DNA of 64,000 nt from Escherichia coli (GTDB lineage Bacteria; Pseudomonadota; Gammaproteobacteria; Enterobacterales; Enterobacteriaceae). The translations under genes and the position numbers were made by a program. The notes below the pieces were generated by a model that was not told the DNA's origin, searched no databases, and saw nothing but the letters and a program-made list of their open reading frames with translations. Position 1 is the first letter of the stretch; each line of letters opens with the position of its first letter. Positions 41,633 through 60,126 of the stretch are shown here, in pieces. The stretch lies in assembly GCA_902500205.1 (NCBI GenBank), contig GCA_902500205.1_4868.1. One strand, written 5' to 3'.

Positions 41633-42120
41633 CGACGATAGCGTTCGACGGAAAAGTCTTAGCTGCTGACGGTCAGCTGACCCGCGGGTCGAATATCTGC
41701 AACCTGAACACCCAGAAGTTATTCATCTGCCCTTCTGACGAGGAATGGTGGATTACTGGTGAACGGATTGTGGCGTTCGGAGTAAGCGGTGACATCACAG
41801 GACAGTTGGCCCTGCTGGAAACGGTCCGCTTGAGACCCGGCTACAAGGGATTAACACAAAGCTCGCAGTTACCTACGAAGATGGATTTTACTTTCCTGAT
41901 GCTTTTGGCCTCAGGAAAAGCGATAGTCGGCGGAAAACGTGAAGACGACGTGACGTTGTGGTGGAGTGAAGCCACACCACCTCTGGCAACCGGAAGCGGT
42001 TACGAGTATGCGTTGGGTGCGATGAAGATGGGCGCGAATGCGGTTCGTGCTGTTGAGATTGCGTCCGAATGCGATATCTACACCGGTGGTGAGATTAGCA
42101 CTTACGAATTACGGAGGTGA
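41629..42120 (+). CDS. HslV/proteasome beta-like Ntn-hydrolase threonine peptidase (163 aa)
   Basis: Begins MTTIAFDG (Thr directly after initiator Met); ADGQLTRG, ATGSGYEYALGAM and AVEIASECDIYTGG align with HslV MTTIVSV, GDGQATLG, AIGSGGPYAQAA, ALDIAGDICIYTNH; GAGGAGG RBS 8 nt upstream. Confidence 0.8.
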   Translation: MTTIAFDGKVLAADGQLTRGSNICNLNTQKLFICPSDEEWWITGERIVAFGVSGDITGQLALLETVRLRPGYKGLTQSSQLPTKMDFTFLMLLASGKAIVGGKREDDVTLWWSEATPPLATGSGYEYALGAMKMGANAVRAVEIASECDIYTGGEISTYELRR

Positions 42121-42212
42121 ATCATGCGGGAGTCAGAAGCACGCAAGCTTGACCCCATCAATCGCCTGCGATAACGGGGTAGCGCATCCGTATAAACACG
42201 TTCAAGAATTCT

Positions 42213-42288
42213 AGGAAAGTGACGCAATTGGTAGCGTACCGGTCTCCAAAACCGGCTGTTTAGAGTTCGAGTCTCTACTTTCCTGCCA
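42213..42288 (+). tRNA. tRNA-Trp (anticodon CCA) with encoded 3-prime CCA
   Basis: Hand-folded cloverleaf: 7-bp acceptor AGGAAAG/CTTTCCT, D-arm ACGC/GCGT, anticodon stem CCGGT/ACCGG with loop CTCCAAA, T-arm TAGAG-TTCGAGT-CTCTA, discriminator G then CCA. Confidence 0.85.
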
Positions 42289-42354
42289 CATTTAGCCAAC
42301 AAGGCCATGATTCAAAGCAGAATGACACCGAATGTCTAACTGCGGAGAATAATC

Positions 42355-42597
42355 ATGAACTTGTATTTGCTAGAACGAACTGACGATATCGGGTATGATG
42401 AATTTGATTCCATAATCGTGGCGGCTCCTACGGAGCAAGCCGCGTGTGCAATTCCTCCCGACCGTGGTCATTGGATGGACTGCCGCTGGTTACCGAAAGA
42501 GCGCTGGGATGAAGGGCTTACCCTGACCGTTACCCTTATCGGCACTACGCACTATCCTGCTGGGACCGTCGTTCATGAATCGTTCAATGCTGGCTAA
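42355..42597 (+). CDS. small protein (80 aa), single-copy paralog of the repeat domain in the 191-aa protein
   Basis: Same leader and start (GGAGAAT..ATGAACTTGTAT) as gene at 41057; N-terminus MNLYLLERTDD...IIVAAPTEQAA parallels MNLYRVGFYRNE...VLAENEEQAK. Confidence 0.55.
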   Translation: MNLYLLERTDDIGYDEFDSIIVAAPTEQAACAIPPDRGHWMDCRWLPKERWDEGLTLTVTLIGTTHYPAGTVVHESFNAG

Positions 42598-42600
42598 ACA

Positions 42601-43630
42601 GTGGGCTTCGGCCCACTAACCCTATTCGAGCCATGATACTTACTCAGATTGTGCGGGTTGATGTCCCGCATGAGCCGGTAGCAGCTCAGACCTACGGTAA
42701 ACCGATAAATCCGTAGCAGCCAGGTACACAAAGCACCAGGTCGCTTGTACAGGATGCTGGGTATCTGACCGGTCATAACCTCATTCGATACGAGACACGT
42801 TTATGCATGAAATATTCCAGTACATCAGGATGTTGATTTCAAACGTCCGGTTCTGGGTATTCAATCATGTTTGGTTTACAGGCGATGGGTTTTCCCGCAA
42901 GGGCCCCACTTACAGACTGGCGTCTCCACGACAACCGTCCCTAGGGGACAGGCAAGCACCGGCCCATTAAGCCGCCATGCTACGCCTGTAAATCCACAAT
43001 CTGATAACCGAATGGGATTGAGTTCCCAGTGTTAGGGTGACTGTGTGTCACCGTAGGCGCGGTACCTCATACGGCCGGTACGCCACGAATGTACGTGATA
43101 GCAGGTGGTGCTTGGAGACGCTAAGACCTGACCTTACGGCCAGGCTCAGAAGAAGAAGTTCATCACCCGCATTCAGAAATGAATTTAGGTTAATTATTGG
43201 AAGTGGTGAAATCGTTTACGTGATAACTTAGTAGTATGCAACGAACAATACCAGAGTGACTTTACGAGGTTACTGTGGTATATGTCGGTGCGCCGGGCAA
43301 CGTGTTGCCGCAGATAAGCCCGAGGGAGCTGAATGCACTAACACACGCCGGGATGCACCGGCACCTTACAATGGGAGCGCTGTCACCATCAGTGATGACA
43401 GGAGTGAAGGATTCGTACCTCACTCGACTGGGCGGAAGCCTGGGCGTTCCCCCATCTTCACATCATGGCCGGCTTGCCGGTTCAACGTAGACGTCTCGTA
43501 AGAGATTTCCAGTCAGGCAACTGATAACACACCTAAGCGTCGACCTTGGACGTATGGTGTCTGGTTAAGTCCCCCGAAACGGAAACCAGTAGGGGTGTGG
43601 TACGTTGAGTGTAACTATCATGATGCCATG
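42601..43630 (+). ncRNA. candidate large structured noncoding RNA region (family unknown)
   Basis: About 1 kb with no convincing ORF; many local hairpins (GTGGGC-TTCG-GCCCAC, GTCCC-TAG-GGGAC, GGTGAC-TGTGT-GTCACC) and a long-range complementary pair TTACAGGCG / CGCCTGTAA about 100 nt apart. Confidence 0.3.
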
Positions 43631-43636
43631 AACAAT

Positions 43637-43706
43637 GGCTTTGTAGCTCAGGTAGGTAGAGCAGCCTCTTCGAGGAAGGTCGCCGGTTCGAGACCGGTCA
43701 AAGCAA
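43637..43706 (+). tRNA. degenerate tRNA-like element (possible pseudo-tRNA)
   Basis: Canonical D-arm (TAGCTCAGGTAGGTAGAGCA) and T-arm (CCGG-TTCGAGA-CCGG) but mismatched anticodon stem, 1-nt variable loop and G1-A72 mismatch. Confidence 0.3.
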
Positions 43707-43707
43707 G

Positions 43708-43782
43708 AGCAGTGAAGTTAGAGGAATTAACACCCGACTCATAATCGGATATTTCGCGGGTTCGAATCCCTGCCACTTGCTC
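43708..43782 (+). tRNA. degenerate tRNA-like element with CAT anticodon loop (Met/Ile-like), two 1-nt bulges
   Basis: Anticodon arm CCGA-CTCATAA-TCGG and T-loop TTCGAAT present; acceptor and T stems each need a bulged T; no clean CCA. Confidence 0.3.
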
Positions 43783-44161
43783 GCCCCATTTGTGTTATCC
43801 TTATCCCGAAGGCATTCGAAATAAGACGCGTATCCACACACGGGTCAAGGGTAACACGAACCACTTCCGCGGTCACCGTGTCCATTGCCGCCTACCTGCA
43901 TGGGCTGTCCTCCGACACGGTGACTTCGGGCCAACTTACAGGCCAGGGCTGTTTGGGTTTTTCTTACGCATCCATCCAGAGCCACCTCGCGCCCTAGTCT
44001 GTATACCCCTTTTCTGTTCCTGGTTTGCCAACTAAATCAATTAAGCCTGGTGCGTTGCCCTGGGAACAGAAAAACTTATTCGGTTACACACCGAACCCAC
44101 CCACGAGGGATATGTCGTGGACCACCAATAGAAGCAGCAATAGTAGTAAGAAGGAAGCAAC

Positions 44162-44983
44162 ATGTTTACAGTTAAACGTGTAATTGATGGTGACCGCATT
44201 ATTACCGAGCATGAAAAGGTTCGTATCGGTGACCGTAAGTCTCGTGTATTCCGCGAGGCATTAAAAATGCTCGAGAACGAGCGCTTCGACATCGTTGTCG
44301 ATGATGAAAAGTTAGCCCTTAATCCGGGGTTAAAACGCGTTGCCCCTGATGTGCCTGATCCGAACACCATGCATTTGTCTGACTACTGCAGCTGGTCGCA
44401 CAGATTATATAAAAGTCAGGTTTATGCACACACGTATTTGCGGCAGCTTTTCCCCAACCTTATTATCCCCGATTTGGAAACGGTCGAGGTGTTTAACTGC
44501 AACGCACGCGAGTTTATTAGCTACGTGCTAGATAATAAGGGCAATGCTATCTTGGTACTGGACACAAATTCCAGTATACCTGATGCTGTGGCTAGCATAC
44601 GTGGTGAAATCGTCGGTTACGGTACTCCCCCAGAGAAATTAGGCTGGTACAAACCATCTCCTGATAGCGACATGGCGATCATTGTCTACACTCAGGAAGA
44701 ACTGCAACAAGTCGAATTAGAGCCTGGTCCATCTATCGAGTTCACTGATGTCCAGGAGCAAACGCAGTGGGTTAACGGTGAGTGCGTTGTTACTGTTTTA
44801 AAAGGCGCTCGCCCTGGCGACCGGTCAGTCGATGAACTGATTGGCGCAATGTGCATCGAAGAAGAATCTGGGTACGATCCTGATAACCAGATCAGTGCCG
44901 GTGCGTTGTACGAACTGTTTTATAAAGGCGACGAAGTCTACGTGGTTAACTCTCACGGTAAGACTACCGACGCCCTTCGCTGA
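44162..44983 (+). CDS. hypothetical protein (273 aa)
   Basis: ATG with AAGGAAG upstream. Confidence 0.75.
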   Translation: MFTVKRVIDGDRIITEHEKVRIGDRKSRVFREALKMLENERFDIVVDDEKLALNPGLKRVAPDVPDPNTMHLSDYCSWSHRLYKSQVYAHTYLRQLFPNLIIPDLETVEVFNCNAREFISYVLDNKGNAILVLDTNSSIPDAVASIRGEIVGYGTPPEKLGWYKPSPDSDMAIIVYTQEELQQVELEPGPSIEFTDVQEQTQWVNGECVVTVLKGARPGDRSVDELIGAMCIEEESGYDPDNQISAGALYELFYKGDEVYVVNSHGKTTDALR

Positions 44984-58414: not shown

Positions 58415-59923
58415 GTGAGAAAGGTACCAAAATTCTACGGAATATCCGGCCGGTTGGTTAGTCAGGATAACTATTTGTCCGATTTGCAAATAGAAGCTGC
58501 TGCCAAAGGTATTAAACCACCCACTATTATTAACGATGTCGCCGTTAACGGGGATGCGATCGAGGTTGCTGAACTTATCGATCGCATGGTACAGAACAGA
58601 ATCGTTGACGAAGAACTGAACTCTGCACCGATTTGTAGTTTGGATTGTCCGGCACCGATCGCGCATCGTTACAATCTCGGTTGTAAGTGTCCGACGTGTG
58701 GCTATGTTGTAACTGAACATCGAATTGAATCCGATGTCTGGTTACGTGCACCCGATGAAATGGGTAACTTCGTCAACCCACGATTCTGGGCAATGTTCAA
58801 TGCTTTCTTTAATAGCAAGTTGAAGAAGTTTGAACGTAACAAGGTCACTATCGAACGCGGTAATGACTTGATGATGTGGATGATTGACCCGTATTACCGT
58901 ATAGAAGAACCAGACGGTAAACGCGCACATGCTGTGAAACGTGTATTGGAAGAACATGGTTTCGTTCGTGGCTTGCGCAATCTGGTTGATAACCACGTTA
59001 GTATCTTTAACATCCTTACCACGCCAGAAGCCTGGAAGGAAATCTTCGCACCTAATCGGCATAACGCCGCTGAAGGTGAACGCTTACGTTTACAATGGAA
59101 GGAGCTATTCGAAACGCAACGCCATGCATTCTTCCCAAGACACTTACCGCTAATCTCCTCTAAGCTTATCGTTACTGAGGAAGGTCGTCGTGGTGTCATG
59201 GTAGACCCAGTGTTCACGGGTGCTATCGATGCGGTGAAAAATATCGCGTTACTTTATACGCGGCGTAAAGCGATCGAACCACGTTTTCTGATTAGTCGCG
59301 CTTTGAAAGCCAACCGTCAGTTAACGTACTTCCACATGGACTTCCGTCGTGAGTCTATGGAAGGTAAACCGGGTGACTATCGTGCGAAATTGGGTTCTAC
59401 CCATATCCCATTCGGTGGTCGTGCAACCATCTCACCTATCTCAGAACCACACGATGCCTGGAAGTTAAAAGCACCATGGCGTTGGATGGTTGGGTTGATG
59501 TCGACCCACATCGAGAACAAACTGCTACGACGGGGTTATTCGTCACGGCAATGTGAACGTATCGTTGCAAAAGCGGCAATGCAGTATGACCCGCTTGTAG
59601 ATGAAATCTTTAAAGAACTGATTCGTGAATCCCCAGGCGGTCTTGGGATCATGGTCATACCGCTACGTAACCCAACGCTGGTACAGTTGTCTATTCAAAC
59701 GCTGTACATCGATGAAGTTGTTACCGATGTTAACCAGTGTTCGCTGCGTATCTCTGACCGTGTGATCAAGATGGCTAACGGTTCGAAAAGAGCCCCATCG
59801 GACGGGAAACCTCTGATGCGTATTCTCCTGAAATGCTGGGAAACCCTAAAGCGTATCTACCAGAAATGGGGACGAAAGTCTGAAACAACAGATACGATGG
59901 CCTACGCTAAACAATACTGCTAA
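58415..59923 (+). CDS. RNAP beta-prime-like N-terminal subunit, 5-prime exon (frame reads on into candidate intron before stopping)
   Basis: Zinc-ribbon pattern CSLDCPAPIAHRYNLGCKCPTCG near residue 73-95; LRNPTLVQLSIQTLY resembles beta-prime NRAPTLHRLGIQAF; NADFDGD absent from this ORF. Confidence 0.75.
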   Translation: MRKVPKFYGISGRLVSQDNYLSDLQIEAAAKGIKPPTIINDVAVNGDAIEVAELIDRMVQNRIVDEELNSAPICSLDCPAPIAHRYNLGCKCPTCGYVVTEHRIESDVWLRAPDEMGNFVNPRFWAMFNAFFNSKLKKFERNKVTIERGNDLMMWMIDPYYRIEEPDGKRAHAVKRVLEEHGFVRGLRNLVDNHVSIFNILTTPEAWKEIFAPNRHNAAEGERLRLQWKELFETQRHAFFPRHLPLISSKLIVTEEGRRGVMVDPVFTGAIDAVKNIALLYTRRKAIEPRFLISRALKANRQLTYFHMDFRRESMEGKPGDYRAKLGSTHIPFGGRATISPISEPHDAWKLKAPWRWMVGLMSTHIENKLLRRGYSSRQCERIVAKAAMQYDPLVDEIFKELIRESPGGLGIMVIPLRNPTLVQLSIQTLYIDEVVTDVNQCSLRISDRVIKMANGSKRAPSDGKPLMRILLKCWETLKRIYQKWGRKSETTDTMAYAKQYC

Positions 59924-60126
59924 CGGTTGTGATAATGGGTAATCAGCAGCGAAGCCTCGTGAGAGGAACGTTCAACGACTATCGCTGAAATGCGAGTAGG
60001 GGTCCCAGTGGACTTCGAAGTGGGAGAACACCTAAGGCGATAGCTATGGTGAAGATATAGTCTGTGCCTTATCGAGAGATAAGGAGGGTGTCTTAGCACA
60101 CCTGCTGTATACGGAAACGGTATACG
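59762..60126 (+). mobile_element. candidate group I self-splicing intron (no internal ORF); boundaries approximate
   Basis: Elements resembling group I Q, R and S in order: AATCAGCAGC (59941), GTTCAACGACTATC (59970), GAAGATATAGTC (60051); GACTAT/ATAGTC can pair as P7; GNRA-capped hairpin CCTTATC-GAGA-GATAAGG (60067-60084). Confidence 0.6.

Follow-up and report, generated by a model that had tools for sequence, protein, structure and literature searches.

The stretch analysed here, referred to as the window, comprises 64,000 nucleotides (nt) of contig GCA_902500205.1_4868.1, from an assembly deposited as Escherichia coli (GCA_902500205.1), and we found that it belongs to a SPN3US-like jumbo phage of the genus Seoulvirus. 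Our subject is two transfer RNA (tRNA)-like elements, named E1 (43637-43706) and E2 (43707-43783), which lie in tandem on the plus strand and abut, with zero spacer between 43706 and 43707. A preliminary description, made from the letters of the sequence, had noticed them as a pair that fails canonical folding. Both are present at that site and on that strand, with E2 one base longer than described, to 43783. Their features are as follows.

43637-43706, + strand: E1, predicted 70-nt tRNA-shaped RNA without an anticodon loop
43637-43643, + strand: E1 acceptor, 5' strand (Rfam alignment)
43637, + strand: E1 G1, facing A72 (43705); a G.A mismatch in 12 of 12 orthologues
43646-43662, + strand: E1 D arm (Rfam alignment)
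43664-43676, + strand: E1 truncated anticodon-arm hairpin, GCCTC-TTC-GAGGA (Rfam alignment and minimum free energy (MFE) fold)
43677-43681, + strand: E1 variable loop
43682-43698, + strand: E1 T arm
43699-43705, + strand: E1 acceptor, 3' strand
43706, + strand: E1 discriminator A73, likewise invariant
43707-43783, + strand: E2, putative 77-nt non-canonical tRNA with anticodon CAT
43707-43714, + strand: E2 acceptor, 5' strand
43717-43731, + strand: E2 D arm
43733-43749, + strand: E2 anticodon arm
43740-43742, + strand: E2 anticodon CAT, within the loop CTCATAA (43738-43744)
43750-43755, + strand: E2 variable loop
43756-43773, + strand: E2 T arm
43771, + strand: extra T in the 3' strand of the E2 T stem
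43774-43782, + strand: E2 acceptor, 3' strand
43777-43778, + strand: one of two neighbouring T, bulged from the 3' acceptor strand of E2
43783, + strand: final G of E2

Identity of the region to the SPN3US-like jumbo phages of Salmonella, Escherichia and Proteus (Seoulvirus) is 96-98%, and a more distant, recognisable kinship links it to the Erwinia phages of Machinavirus and Erskinevirus. About 25 related phages, from three genera, have both units at the syntenic position. The pair precedes a homologue of the window's open reading frame (ORF) 44162-44983 in Seoulvirus, Machinavirus, Erskinevirus and one IMG/VR contig, and among the collected relatives Asesino is the sole genome without E1 on the 5' side of E2. 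In relatives, the site is a cluster of 6-11 tRNA genes (Tyr, Gln, Asp, Ile, His, Glu, Ser etc.), which ends, in order, with the E1 position, the CAT tRNA (E2), tRNA-Asn and the homologue of ORF 44162-44983. SPAsTU, itself a Seoulvirus, retains tRNA-Tyr, Glu, Asp, Ile and Gln, and tRNA-Asn follows E2 in MET_P1, SPAsTU and the Erwinia phages. In the window, the SPAsTU block (a small coding sequence plus these five tRNAs; locus L008 493-1369) is cleanly absent at about 43367, between conserved flanks, and no tRNA-Asn follows E2. Hence, the SPN3US lineage has shed ordinary tRNAs and kept tRNA-Trp, E1 and E2; six canonical cluster tRNAs (Tyr, Glu, Asp, Ile, Gln and Asn) have been lost in SPN3US-like phages.

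Structure and conservation of E1 and E2

E1 reads, part by part, GGCTTTG TA GCTC AGGTAGGTA GAGC A GCCTC TTC GAGGA AGGTC GCCGG TTCGAGA CCGGT CAAAGCA A. It has six acceptor pairs plus the G1.A72 mismatch, a T arm GCCGG/TTCGAGA/CCGGT and a D loop (AGGTAGGTA) that contains GG. The anticodon arm consists of four Watson-Crick pairs with a G.A mismatch at the base and a 3-nt loop. With so short a loop on a truncated arm an anticodon is absent, and there is no 7-nt loop with U33 and purine 37 that could present a triplet. In the preliminary description, the variable loop of E1 had 1 nt and its anticodon stem was mismatched. A better register, obtained from the Rfam alignment and from the orthologues, has AGGTC as a variable loop of normal length (5 nt) and an anticodon arm that is truncated. 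The TTCGA T loops that it had noted are present in both elements.

The acceptor and T pairs of E1 are all formed in 12 of 12 distinct orthologues, except 1:72. Moreover, nine of the 12 acceptor and T pairs are changed on both sides among these sequences, a result matched by none of 500 shuffles, while slid controls were 25-52% paired; the count was confined to the acceptor strands and the T arm, as defined by position. In all genomes that carry it, E1 ends with ...CA-A, and the first G of E2 follows. Its interior is unlike in each lineage, and the anticodon-arm hairpin has no conserved triplet and a loop of 3-7 nt, the short ones being TTC, ATC or TTT. Three types were distinguished. Type A combines a normal D arm with a hairpin of unrelated sequence, the loop of which has 3 nt in the window and 4-5 nt in L035 and pSal04; in SPAsTU the anticodon arm is lengthened by a 39-nt GAAA-capped extension, and a long extra arm is added in Huxley, SNU6 and L058. 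Type B (phiEaH2, ChrisDB, SNU8, SNU29) is a compact, nearly linker-free four-way junction of 65-67 nt, with GG in the first hairpin loop and 4, 6 or 7 nt in the second. Type C (SNU10, SNU43) has a further, different interior.

We also considered E1 as a degenerate initiator tRNA-fMet, which its acceptor end resembles (1:72 mismatch, G2-C71, C3-G70, A73). Bacterial tRNA-fMet is marked by C1xA72, A11-U24, three G-C pairs low in the anticodon stem and CAU (PMC1635315). E1 has G1 and not C1, C11-G24 and not A11-U24, and neither G12-C23 nor an anticodon, and this candidate was rejected. As judged from its sequence, E1 is a putative tRNA mimic of the mascRNA kind, predicted to be unable to decode.

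E2 reads GAGCAGTG AA GTTA GAGGAAT TAAC A CCCGA CTCATAA TCGGA TATTTC GCGGG TTCGAAT CCC(T)GC CAC(T)TGCTC G, and the MFE fold of the window allele is the cloverleaf. We collected E2 from 26 genomes or contigs, with 18 distinct sequences. For the pair count, bulged bases and variable-arm insertions were removed by hand, whereby Lh1B became the same as the SPN3US/P7 type and 17 distinct sequences remained. In these, 93% of cells were paired and 12 of the 22 pairs were changed on both sides; again none of 500 shuffles matched, and slid controls were 30-48% paired. The anticodon stem and CAT are invariant in all 17, other loop bases being altered in Huxley and Asesino, and in the window allele the anticodon loop comprises 7 nt, with U33 and purine 37. 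As observations on the wider family, the E2 of ChrisDB, SNU6 and SNU8, with a hairpin of 23 nt, is a class-II-like CAT tRNA of 97-98 nt, and a second, canonical CAT tRNA is found elsewhere in the cluster of ChrisDB, SNU8 and phiEaH2.

The two single-T bulges that E2 had been said to need were confirmed at T43771, in the T arm, and T43777/8, in the 3' acceptor strand, so uninterrupted 7-base-pair (bp) acceptor and 5-bp T stems are not available; T43771 may alternatively belong to an 8-nt T loop closed by G.U. The preliminary description had also raised the question whether the extra T residues are lineage-specific. On alignment, the window shares T43771 only with phage 1252 and EC001. At the 43777-43778 site, a T or A is bulged in all SPN3US-like Seoulviruses, and one pair higher a T is bulged in SNU29, IMG/VR L035 and Asesino.

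At the acceptor end of E2, each of the 17 haplotypes can form eight consecutive pairs. Seven of these, the inner ones, vary or covary; the G:C at the outer end never changes, and its pairing therefore lacks support from covariation. Two registers are available. In register (a), chosen by Rfam, E2 is a 7/5 tRNA in which G-1 pairs with C73, as in tRNA-His. In register (b), implied by the tRNAscan-SE/ARAGORN coordinates in GenBank, it is an 8/5 tRNA with discriminator G73. Counted from G43707, register (b) gives G3-C70 (or A-U, G.U) and an invariant C4-G69, with A-U, G-C or C-G at 5-68; in register (a) the same bases read C3-G70, which is Met-like. The marks of tRNA-Ile(CAT) are G3/A3 with C70/T70, C4-G69 and C5-G68, of which C4-G69 is required by TilS (PMC1635315). 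The amino-acid identity of E2 would thus lie between Ile2 and Met, with a slight preference for Ile2. A codon-supply argument for tRNA-Ile2 was dropped, as AUA is not enriched in the 25 long ORFs of the window (4.3 per 1000 codons, 8% of Ile codons).

Overall, these data describe E2 as a conserved, covarying family of predicted CAU tRNAs with an irregular top half. To judge from the sequences, the family as a whole clearly is functional, or was so until recently. We regard E2 as a non-canonical tRNA that is possibly eroding, with Ile2 or Met as its most likely type.

The public record of the locus is contradictory. Against the Rfam tRNA family RF00005 (gathering threshold 29), E1 scores 36.4 bits (E = 3.4e-05) and its orthologues 31-41 bits; E1 passes only with four of the 7 anticodon-loop positions deleted and with mismatches 1:72 and 27:43 accepted. 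Orthologues of E2 pass as well, with 30.6 bits in SPN3US and P7, 31.3-31.9 in SPAsTU and MET_P1 and 33.7-45.6 in the Erwinia-phage genera. The best E2 members thus reach 40-46 bits, versus 47-76 bits for ordinary tRNAs of the same clusters. ARAGORN and GenBank annotators call E2 orthologues tRNA-Met(cat), tRNA-Ile or, in one record, tRNA-Ile2(cat), and for E1 orthologues the tools return conflicting 'anticodons' (Asp, Pro cgg, Ile aat, '???', OTHER). The annotation of Proteus phage 7 places tRNA-Asp and tRNA-Ile at E1/E2, that of SPN3US a tRNA-OTHER and an antisense hypothetical protein, and many other records nothing. The genome papers count one tRNA in the SPFM phages and 10 in pSal-SNUABM-04, without comment. 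These annotations (tRNA-Asp, Ile, Met, OTHER, nothing, antisense protein) can be harmonised.

Neither ARAGORN nor Rfam found a transfer-messenger RNA (tmRNA) in the window, and the Rfam mascRNA model did not match E1. The only families other than tRNA at E1/E2 with E <= 10 were chance-level reverse-strand matches to 'Plastid-ycf2' and 'YrlA', which we dismissed as sub-threshold cross-matches to the tRNA shape. Among 185,579 bacterial and archaeal genomes of a species collection, none had the combination of D arm and anticodon arm of E2. A pattern scan of IMG/VR returned 42 loci, of which four belong to the E1/E2 family and the remainder are ordinary phage tRNA-Met with the same anticodon arm; a metagenome scan added four further loci. 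The preliminary description had named normal tRNA folds, or unrelated sequence in relatives, as grounds for abandoning its view; we found that the tools give no normal fold for either element and that relatives carry related sequence at the site.

Allelic variation and neighbourhood

Within Seoulvirus, the 5' two-thirds of E2 hardly vary. When the window is compared with Proteus phage 7 or MET_P1, this part and E1 show a difference of 0-2%. In the T arm and 3' acceptor strand of E2 the difference is 7-18%, in phages whose flanks differ by 0.5-3%. The top half of E2 occurs in four self-consistent haplotypes (window, SPN3US/P7, MET_P1 and SPAsTU), in which, for example, GTG/CAC goes with GCGGG/CCC(T)GC and GCG/CG(T)T with GACGG/CCGTC. 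Changes between haplotypes are compensated, as from T7-A to C7-G and from GCGGG/CCCGC to GACGG/CCGTC, and this internal consistency argues for selection for pairing. Lh1B has an additional G in the T stem. The window allele, with two bulges, has the lowest Rfam score of the family; with its extra T-arm T it may be partly impaired, and the chances that it is a working tRNA seem about even. The extra T could be a recombination scar with the lost tRNA-Asn, as CCCTGCCA in E2 resembles CCTGCCA in the tRNA-Asn of MET_P1, a likeness that is suggestive only. In phage 1252, a coding sequence of 179 amino acids (aa) stands directly after E2 (L061 927-1466), where the window is intergenic, and this insertion marks the 3' edge of E2 as a recurrent point of recombination or insertion.

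A similar dimorphism was found in tRNA-Trp (42213-42288). Between its two alleles, 25 of 76 positions differ. Every difference falls within the acceptor or T stem and is compensated; the D and anticodon arms are the same in both, and the flanks are 98-99% identical. The window-type allele is shared by EC001, Lh1B, the SPFM phages and SPLA5c, the other by SPN3US, P7, MET_P1, 1252 and SPLA1a.

Upstream of E1 lies a further element, named E0.

43373-43452, + strand: E0, a tRNA-sized RNA folding as a four-way junction, with a 7-bp terminal stem GGGAGCG/CGTTCCC and three hairpins (MFE -37.1 kcal/mol, z = -2.56)

The middle hairpin loop of E0 is ATTCGTA; a T-loop consensus is lacking, and there are no Rfam matches. 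Elements with 90-95% identity to E0 occupy a tRNA-like slot amid the tRNA genes of Asesino (L052 1091-1174) and SPAsTU (L008 1370-1456), and its counterpart in SNU29 shows compensatory changes. E0 belongs to the same cluster remnant as E1/E2. E0 and a 184-nt spacer form a segment of about 262 bp (43372-43632), which is present in the window, P7, MET_P1 and SPFM/SPLA phages and missing in SPN3US, SEGD1, JN03, SaP7, EC001, Lh1B and SPLA3. The sequence ACAA(T/C)GG stands at both ends of this indel. A leader ACAAT-GG (variants ACAAC, ACAAA, ATAAT) precedes E0 (43368-43374) and E1 (43632-43638), and in Asesino it precedes E2. We tried the leader ACAAT(G)G as a late promoter of the phiKZ type (TATG) and rejected it, since the window holds 9 matches versus 9.3 expected, the phiKZ consensus differs, and relatives are not strictly conserved (ACAAC, ACAAA, TTAAG).

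Just upstream, Asesino (L052 1360-1480) and phiEaH2 (L005, about 1330-1430) carry an irregular tRNA-like gene of about 121 nt, annotated as tRNA-Ile(aat), with normal acceptor, D and T arms and a long middle insertion; these clusters thus contain several non-canonical tRNA-shaped genes. Machinavirus has, as the neighbour upstream, another tRNA-like gene with CCA at its end. Elsewhere in the window, a complete group I intron lies at 59763-60084 on the plus strand (Rfam 69.4 bits, threshold 50).

Interpretation and rival explanations

Conservation of E1 and E2 at the same site in about 25 phages, together with the covariation of their stems, is more than would be expected by chance. Reasoning from sequence comparison, we consider that the two probably are the conserved core of a jumbo-phage tRNA cluster, retained as a fused pair in which E1 is a tRNA mimic and E2 an irregular CAU tRNA. 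A scan of 41900-44400 for sigma-70 promoters and terminators gave nothing above shuffled expectation. With no such signal between the units, a long polycistronic transcript is assumed, and E1 and E2 would be transcribed within this one plus-strand RNA. Host RNase P, which would read the elbow and measure along the acceptor/T helix, may cleave at the 5' end of E1 (G43637) and then at the E1/E2 junction. Because a spacer is absent, the junction cut would also yield the 3' end of E1, at or beside A73. CCA is not encoded in E1 or E2, unlike in tRNA-Trp and tRNA-Asn of these phages, and the E1 end so made could be ready for CCA addition. E1 is conserved only in the half read by processing enzymes, namely the acceptor stem, the T arm and the GG-containing first loop, with its anticodon arm as a free-running hairpin. 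It may serve as a processing module in cis or give a small tRNA-shaped product acting in trans, and would not be an adaptor. E2 may enter the tRNA pool, where its role would most likely be in decoding, either as an AUA-reading tRNA-Ile2, with lysidine made by host TilS, or as an AUG-reading tRNA-Met.

Several observations weigh against this reading. ARAGORN, run on the whole 64-kb window, makes tRNA-Trp its sole call and finds neither E1 nor E2, and the window E2 scores 23.8 bits in Rfam, below the threshold. To this extent, the failure of canonical folding noted in the preliminary description is borne out. The structure of E2 was derived from the same sequences in which its pairs were counted, with bulges and insertions removed by hand. 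Several features depart from what is normal in translating tRNAs: all members have a C27.A43 mismatch; Huxley and Asesino have C33; and ChrisDB, SNU6 and SNU8 (L051, L053, L055) carry the 23-nt hairpin in the variable region (GTTACCC-GGC-GGGTAAC). With AUA making up so few Ile codons, a demand for extra tRNA-Ile2 is not obvious. The E2 of phage 1252 is a mosaic of an SPN3US-type 5' strand and a window-type 3' strand, which leaves a C7.A mismatch. The EC001 mosaic has the same mismatch, its T stem is broken by GACGG opposite CCCTGC, and its MFE fold is not the cloverleaf. These mosaics imply weak selection on E2 in this lineage, or else they are very recent recombinants. Types A, B and C of E1 might not be orthologous but have arisen by independent replacement at a single site, in which case the apparent covariation would be inflated. 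Finally, we found neither a discussion of E1/E2 in the literature nor a transcriptome of this phage group.

A bolder version of the same idea, which we regard as unlikely, treats the pair as a two-part RNA module that is retained when ordinary tRNAs go, with E1 as a trans-acting mimic and E2 as an unusual tRNA bearing the footprint of an arms race. In such a module, E1 would be matured by RNase P and the CCA-adding enzyme and could titrate, or serve as a decoy for, a host factor that reads the acceptor/T half. A GG 5' end and a 1:72 mismatch are triggers of CCACCA tagging of unstable tRNA-like RNAs, and those of E1, which are invariant, could mark it for such tagging. E2, with its 13-bp acceptor/T helix or its His-like G-1:C73, might escape the normal rules of EF-Tu and aminoacyl-tRNA synthetases, which could allow non-standard charging, an initiation-like use or resistance to a host defence that targets tRNA. 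The arms race would then have left its trace in the fast, compensated turnover of the E2 and tRNA-Trp top halves.

The conserved core, in which E2 most likely decodes, has to be set against the view that both units are functionless tRNA pseudogenes, the slowly eroding remains of the ancestral cluster. We consider this view rather unlikely, although six canonical tRNAs have already gone from the locus in SPN3US-like phages, the window E2 reaches only 23.8 bits with two bulges, the EC001 and 1252 alleles have broken pairs, E1 has no anticodon, AUA codons are not enriched, and the SPFM papers count a single tRNA. Decay would strike stems and loops alike, and so the compensatory covariation of the stems across three genera counts against it. 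Moreover, E1 and E2 are the very units kept when the canonical tRNAs were lost, E1 and most of E2 diverge by only 0-2% between the window and Proteus phage 7 or MET_P1, and four self-consistent haplotypes of the E2 top half coexist within Seoulvirus. Of the readings offered in the preliminary description, 'decaying tRNA genes' therefore fits certain alleles, namely the low-scoring E2 of the window and the broken pairs of EC001 and 1252, and fits the loss of the neighbouring canonical tRNAs; it does not fit the elements as simple pseudogenes. Its 'non-canonical tRNAs' describes them better, with E2 as a conserved, covarying CAU family that has an extra top pair and bulges, and E1 as a conserved element without an anticodon loop. 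A pressure other than translation could also account for the rapid change of the E2 3' third (7-18% against 0.5-3% in the flanks), if E2, and perhaps E1, were a decoy or replacement substrate against a host tRNA-targeting defence or toxin, e.g. nucleases or modifiers of the CAU anticodon or of acceptor ends. The tRNA-Trp gene 1.4 kb upstream, with its 25 compensated differences of 76 in the acceptor and T stems, points the same way, as do the frozen anticodon stem and CAT of E2 alongside oddities that are not translational (C33, the long variable arm). This decoy remains pure inference, however, with no defence system identified here, and recombination between phage lineages explains the dimorphism equally well, as the mosaics suggest. 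In the known counter-defence tRNAs of phages it is the anticodon loop that varies and not the top half, which also counts against the decoy, and we hold it to be quite unlikely.

It is very unlikely that E1 and E2 are tRNA-like domains of one larger RNA, tmRNA- or Y-RNA-like, together with E0 and the 184-nt spacer, as the preliminary description had allowed in general form. All four parts share one strand, no terminator-like site separates them, and E0 is itself a structured four-way junction; yet ARAGORN reports no tmRNA, no other Rfam family exceeds the chance-level reverse-strand matches, and the upstream neighbour in Machinavirus is the different, CCA-ended tRNA-like gene. Moreover, 43372-43632 is wholly absent in SPN3US, EC001 and Lh1B, in which E1 and E2 are kept; in SPN3US, the loss of these 262 bp places the pair directly after unrelated upstream sequence. 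Least probable is the view that the region encodes an antisense protein, gp263 of SPN3US (78 aa, minus strand), with the tRNA folds incidental. The ORF is annotated in SPN3US, SPFM4, SPLA1a and SPLA5c and would cover E1/E2 in the window (43648-43885, minus strand), but indels of 1 nt interrupt its frame in the window, EC001 and Lh1B, phage 1252 has other sequence in place of its N-terminus, and only fragments of 42-48 aa are left in the window. The RNA structure, in contrast, is conserved in genera without the ORF. These frameshifts refute the reading, and gp263 is probably a mis-annotation.

Comparison with known systems

With canonical tRNAs (RF00005), both elements share the cloverleaf outline, the GG in the D loop and the TTCGA T loop, and E2 also the 7-nt anticodon loop with U33 and A37. 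E1 differs by the 3-nt loop in place of the anticodon loop and by G1.A72; E2 differs by its extra top G:C pair, the acceptor bulge, the extra T of the T arm, a 6-nt variable loop and C27.A43. The anticodon loop CUCAUAA likens E2 to tRNA-Ile2, whose CAU is modified to lysidine, and to elongator tRNA-Met. In E. coli, both of these have A73 as discriminator, and E2 would depart from them by G73 or C73 and by the additional base pair. In register (b), E2 shares G3-C70 and the invariant C4-G69 with tRNA-Ile(CAT) (PMC1635315).

The eight pairs that can stack at its acceptor end relate E2 to the tRNAs with 8-bp acceptors, namely tRNA-Sec (8/5), selC* tRNA-Cys (8/4) and tRNA-His with its G-1:C73. The 8/5 geometry is otherwise known from bacterial tRNA-Sec, and selC* tRNA-Cys has a T-stem bulge (A51a) like that of the window E2 allele (PMC7609411). 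The invariant top G:C of E2 is like the identity pair of tRNA-His. In contrast to tRNA-Sec and tRNA-His, E2 has neither a UCA or GUG anticodon nor a 6-bp D stem, and a long variable arm is found only in the ChrisDB group.

For E1, the closest parallels are mascRNA and menRNA, which derive from the long non-coding RNAs MALAT1 and NEAT1. In these RNAs the acceptor and T arms are conserved, the small D region contributes two G to the elbow that RNase P/RNase Z read, a compact loop stands where an anticodon loop would be, and aminoacylation does not occur (PMC11693755). E1 shares the conserved acceptor and T arms, the GG of the elbow, the compact arm without an anticodon and, presumably, recognition by RNase P. 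The compact form of E1 (65-67 nt), with four helices in an almost linker-free arrangement and GG in the first loop, moreover agrees with the published description of mascRNA and menRNA (PMC11693755). E1 differs from them in that they are products of eukaryotic transcripts, unrelated in sequence, and in that the window E1 has a full-size D arm and variable loop.

Plant mitochondrial t-elements have been described as tRNA-like structures in polycistronic transcripts that act as RNase P/Z processing signals (PMC1920247). E1 and E2 can likewise be compared to tRNA-like structures in polycistronic transcripts, both to the t-elements and to RNAs C and D of phage T4, a likeness for which no similarity of sequence is expected. 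The latter are small stable RNAs of unknown function within the T4 tRNA cluster.

Codon supply is the usual explanation for the tRNA genes of phages. In the present clade the set of ordinary tRNAs changes, and what is kept is a predicted non-decoding, tRNA-shaped RNA fused to an irregular CAU tRNA. If expressed, the pair would provide an example from bacterial viruses of tRNA mimicry for a purpose other than decoding, as well as a natural case of a non-canonical tRNA that has an additional acceptor pair and tolerates bulges. Taken separately, E1 and E2 belong to known kinds, a tRNA mimic and a non-canonical tRNA. The conserved fusion of an anticodon-less mimic to an irregular CAU tRNA, its retention after the loss of canonical tRNAs and the tolerated bulges appear to be undescribed.

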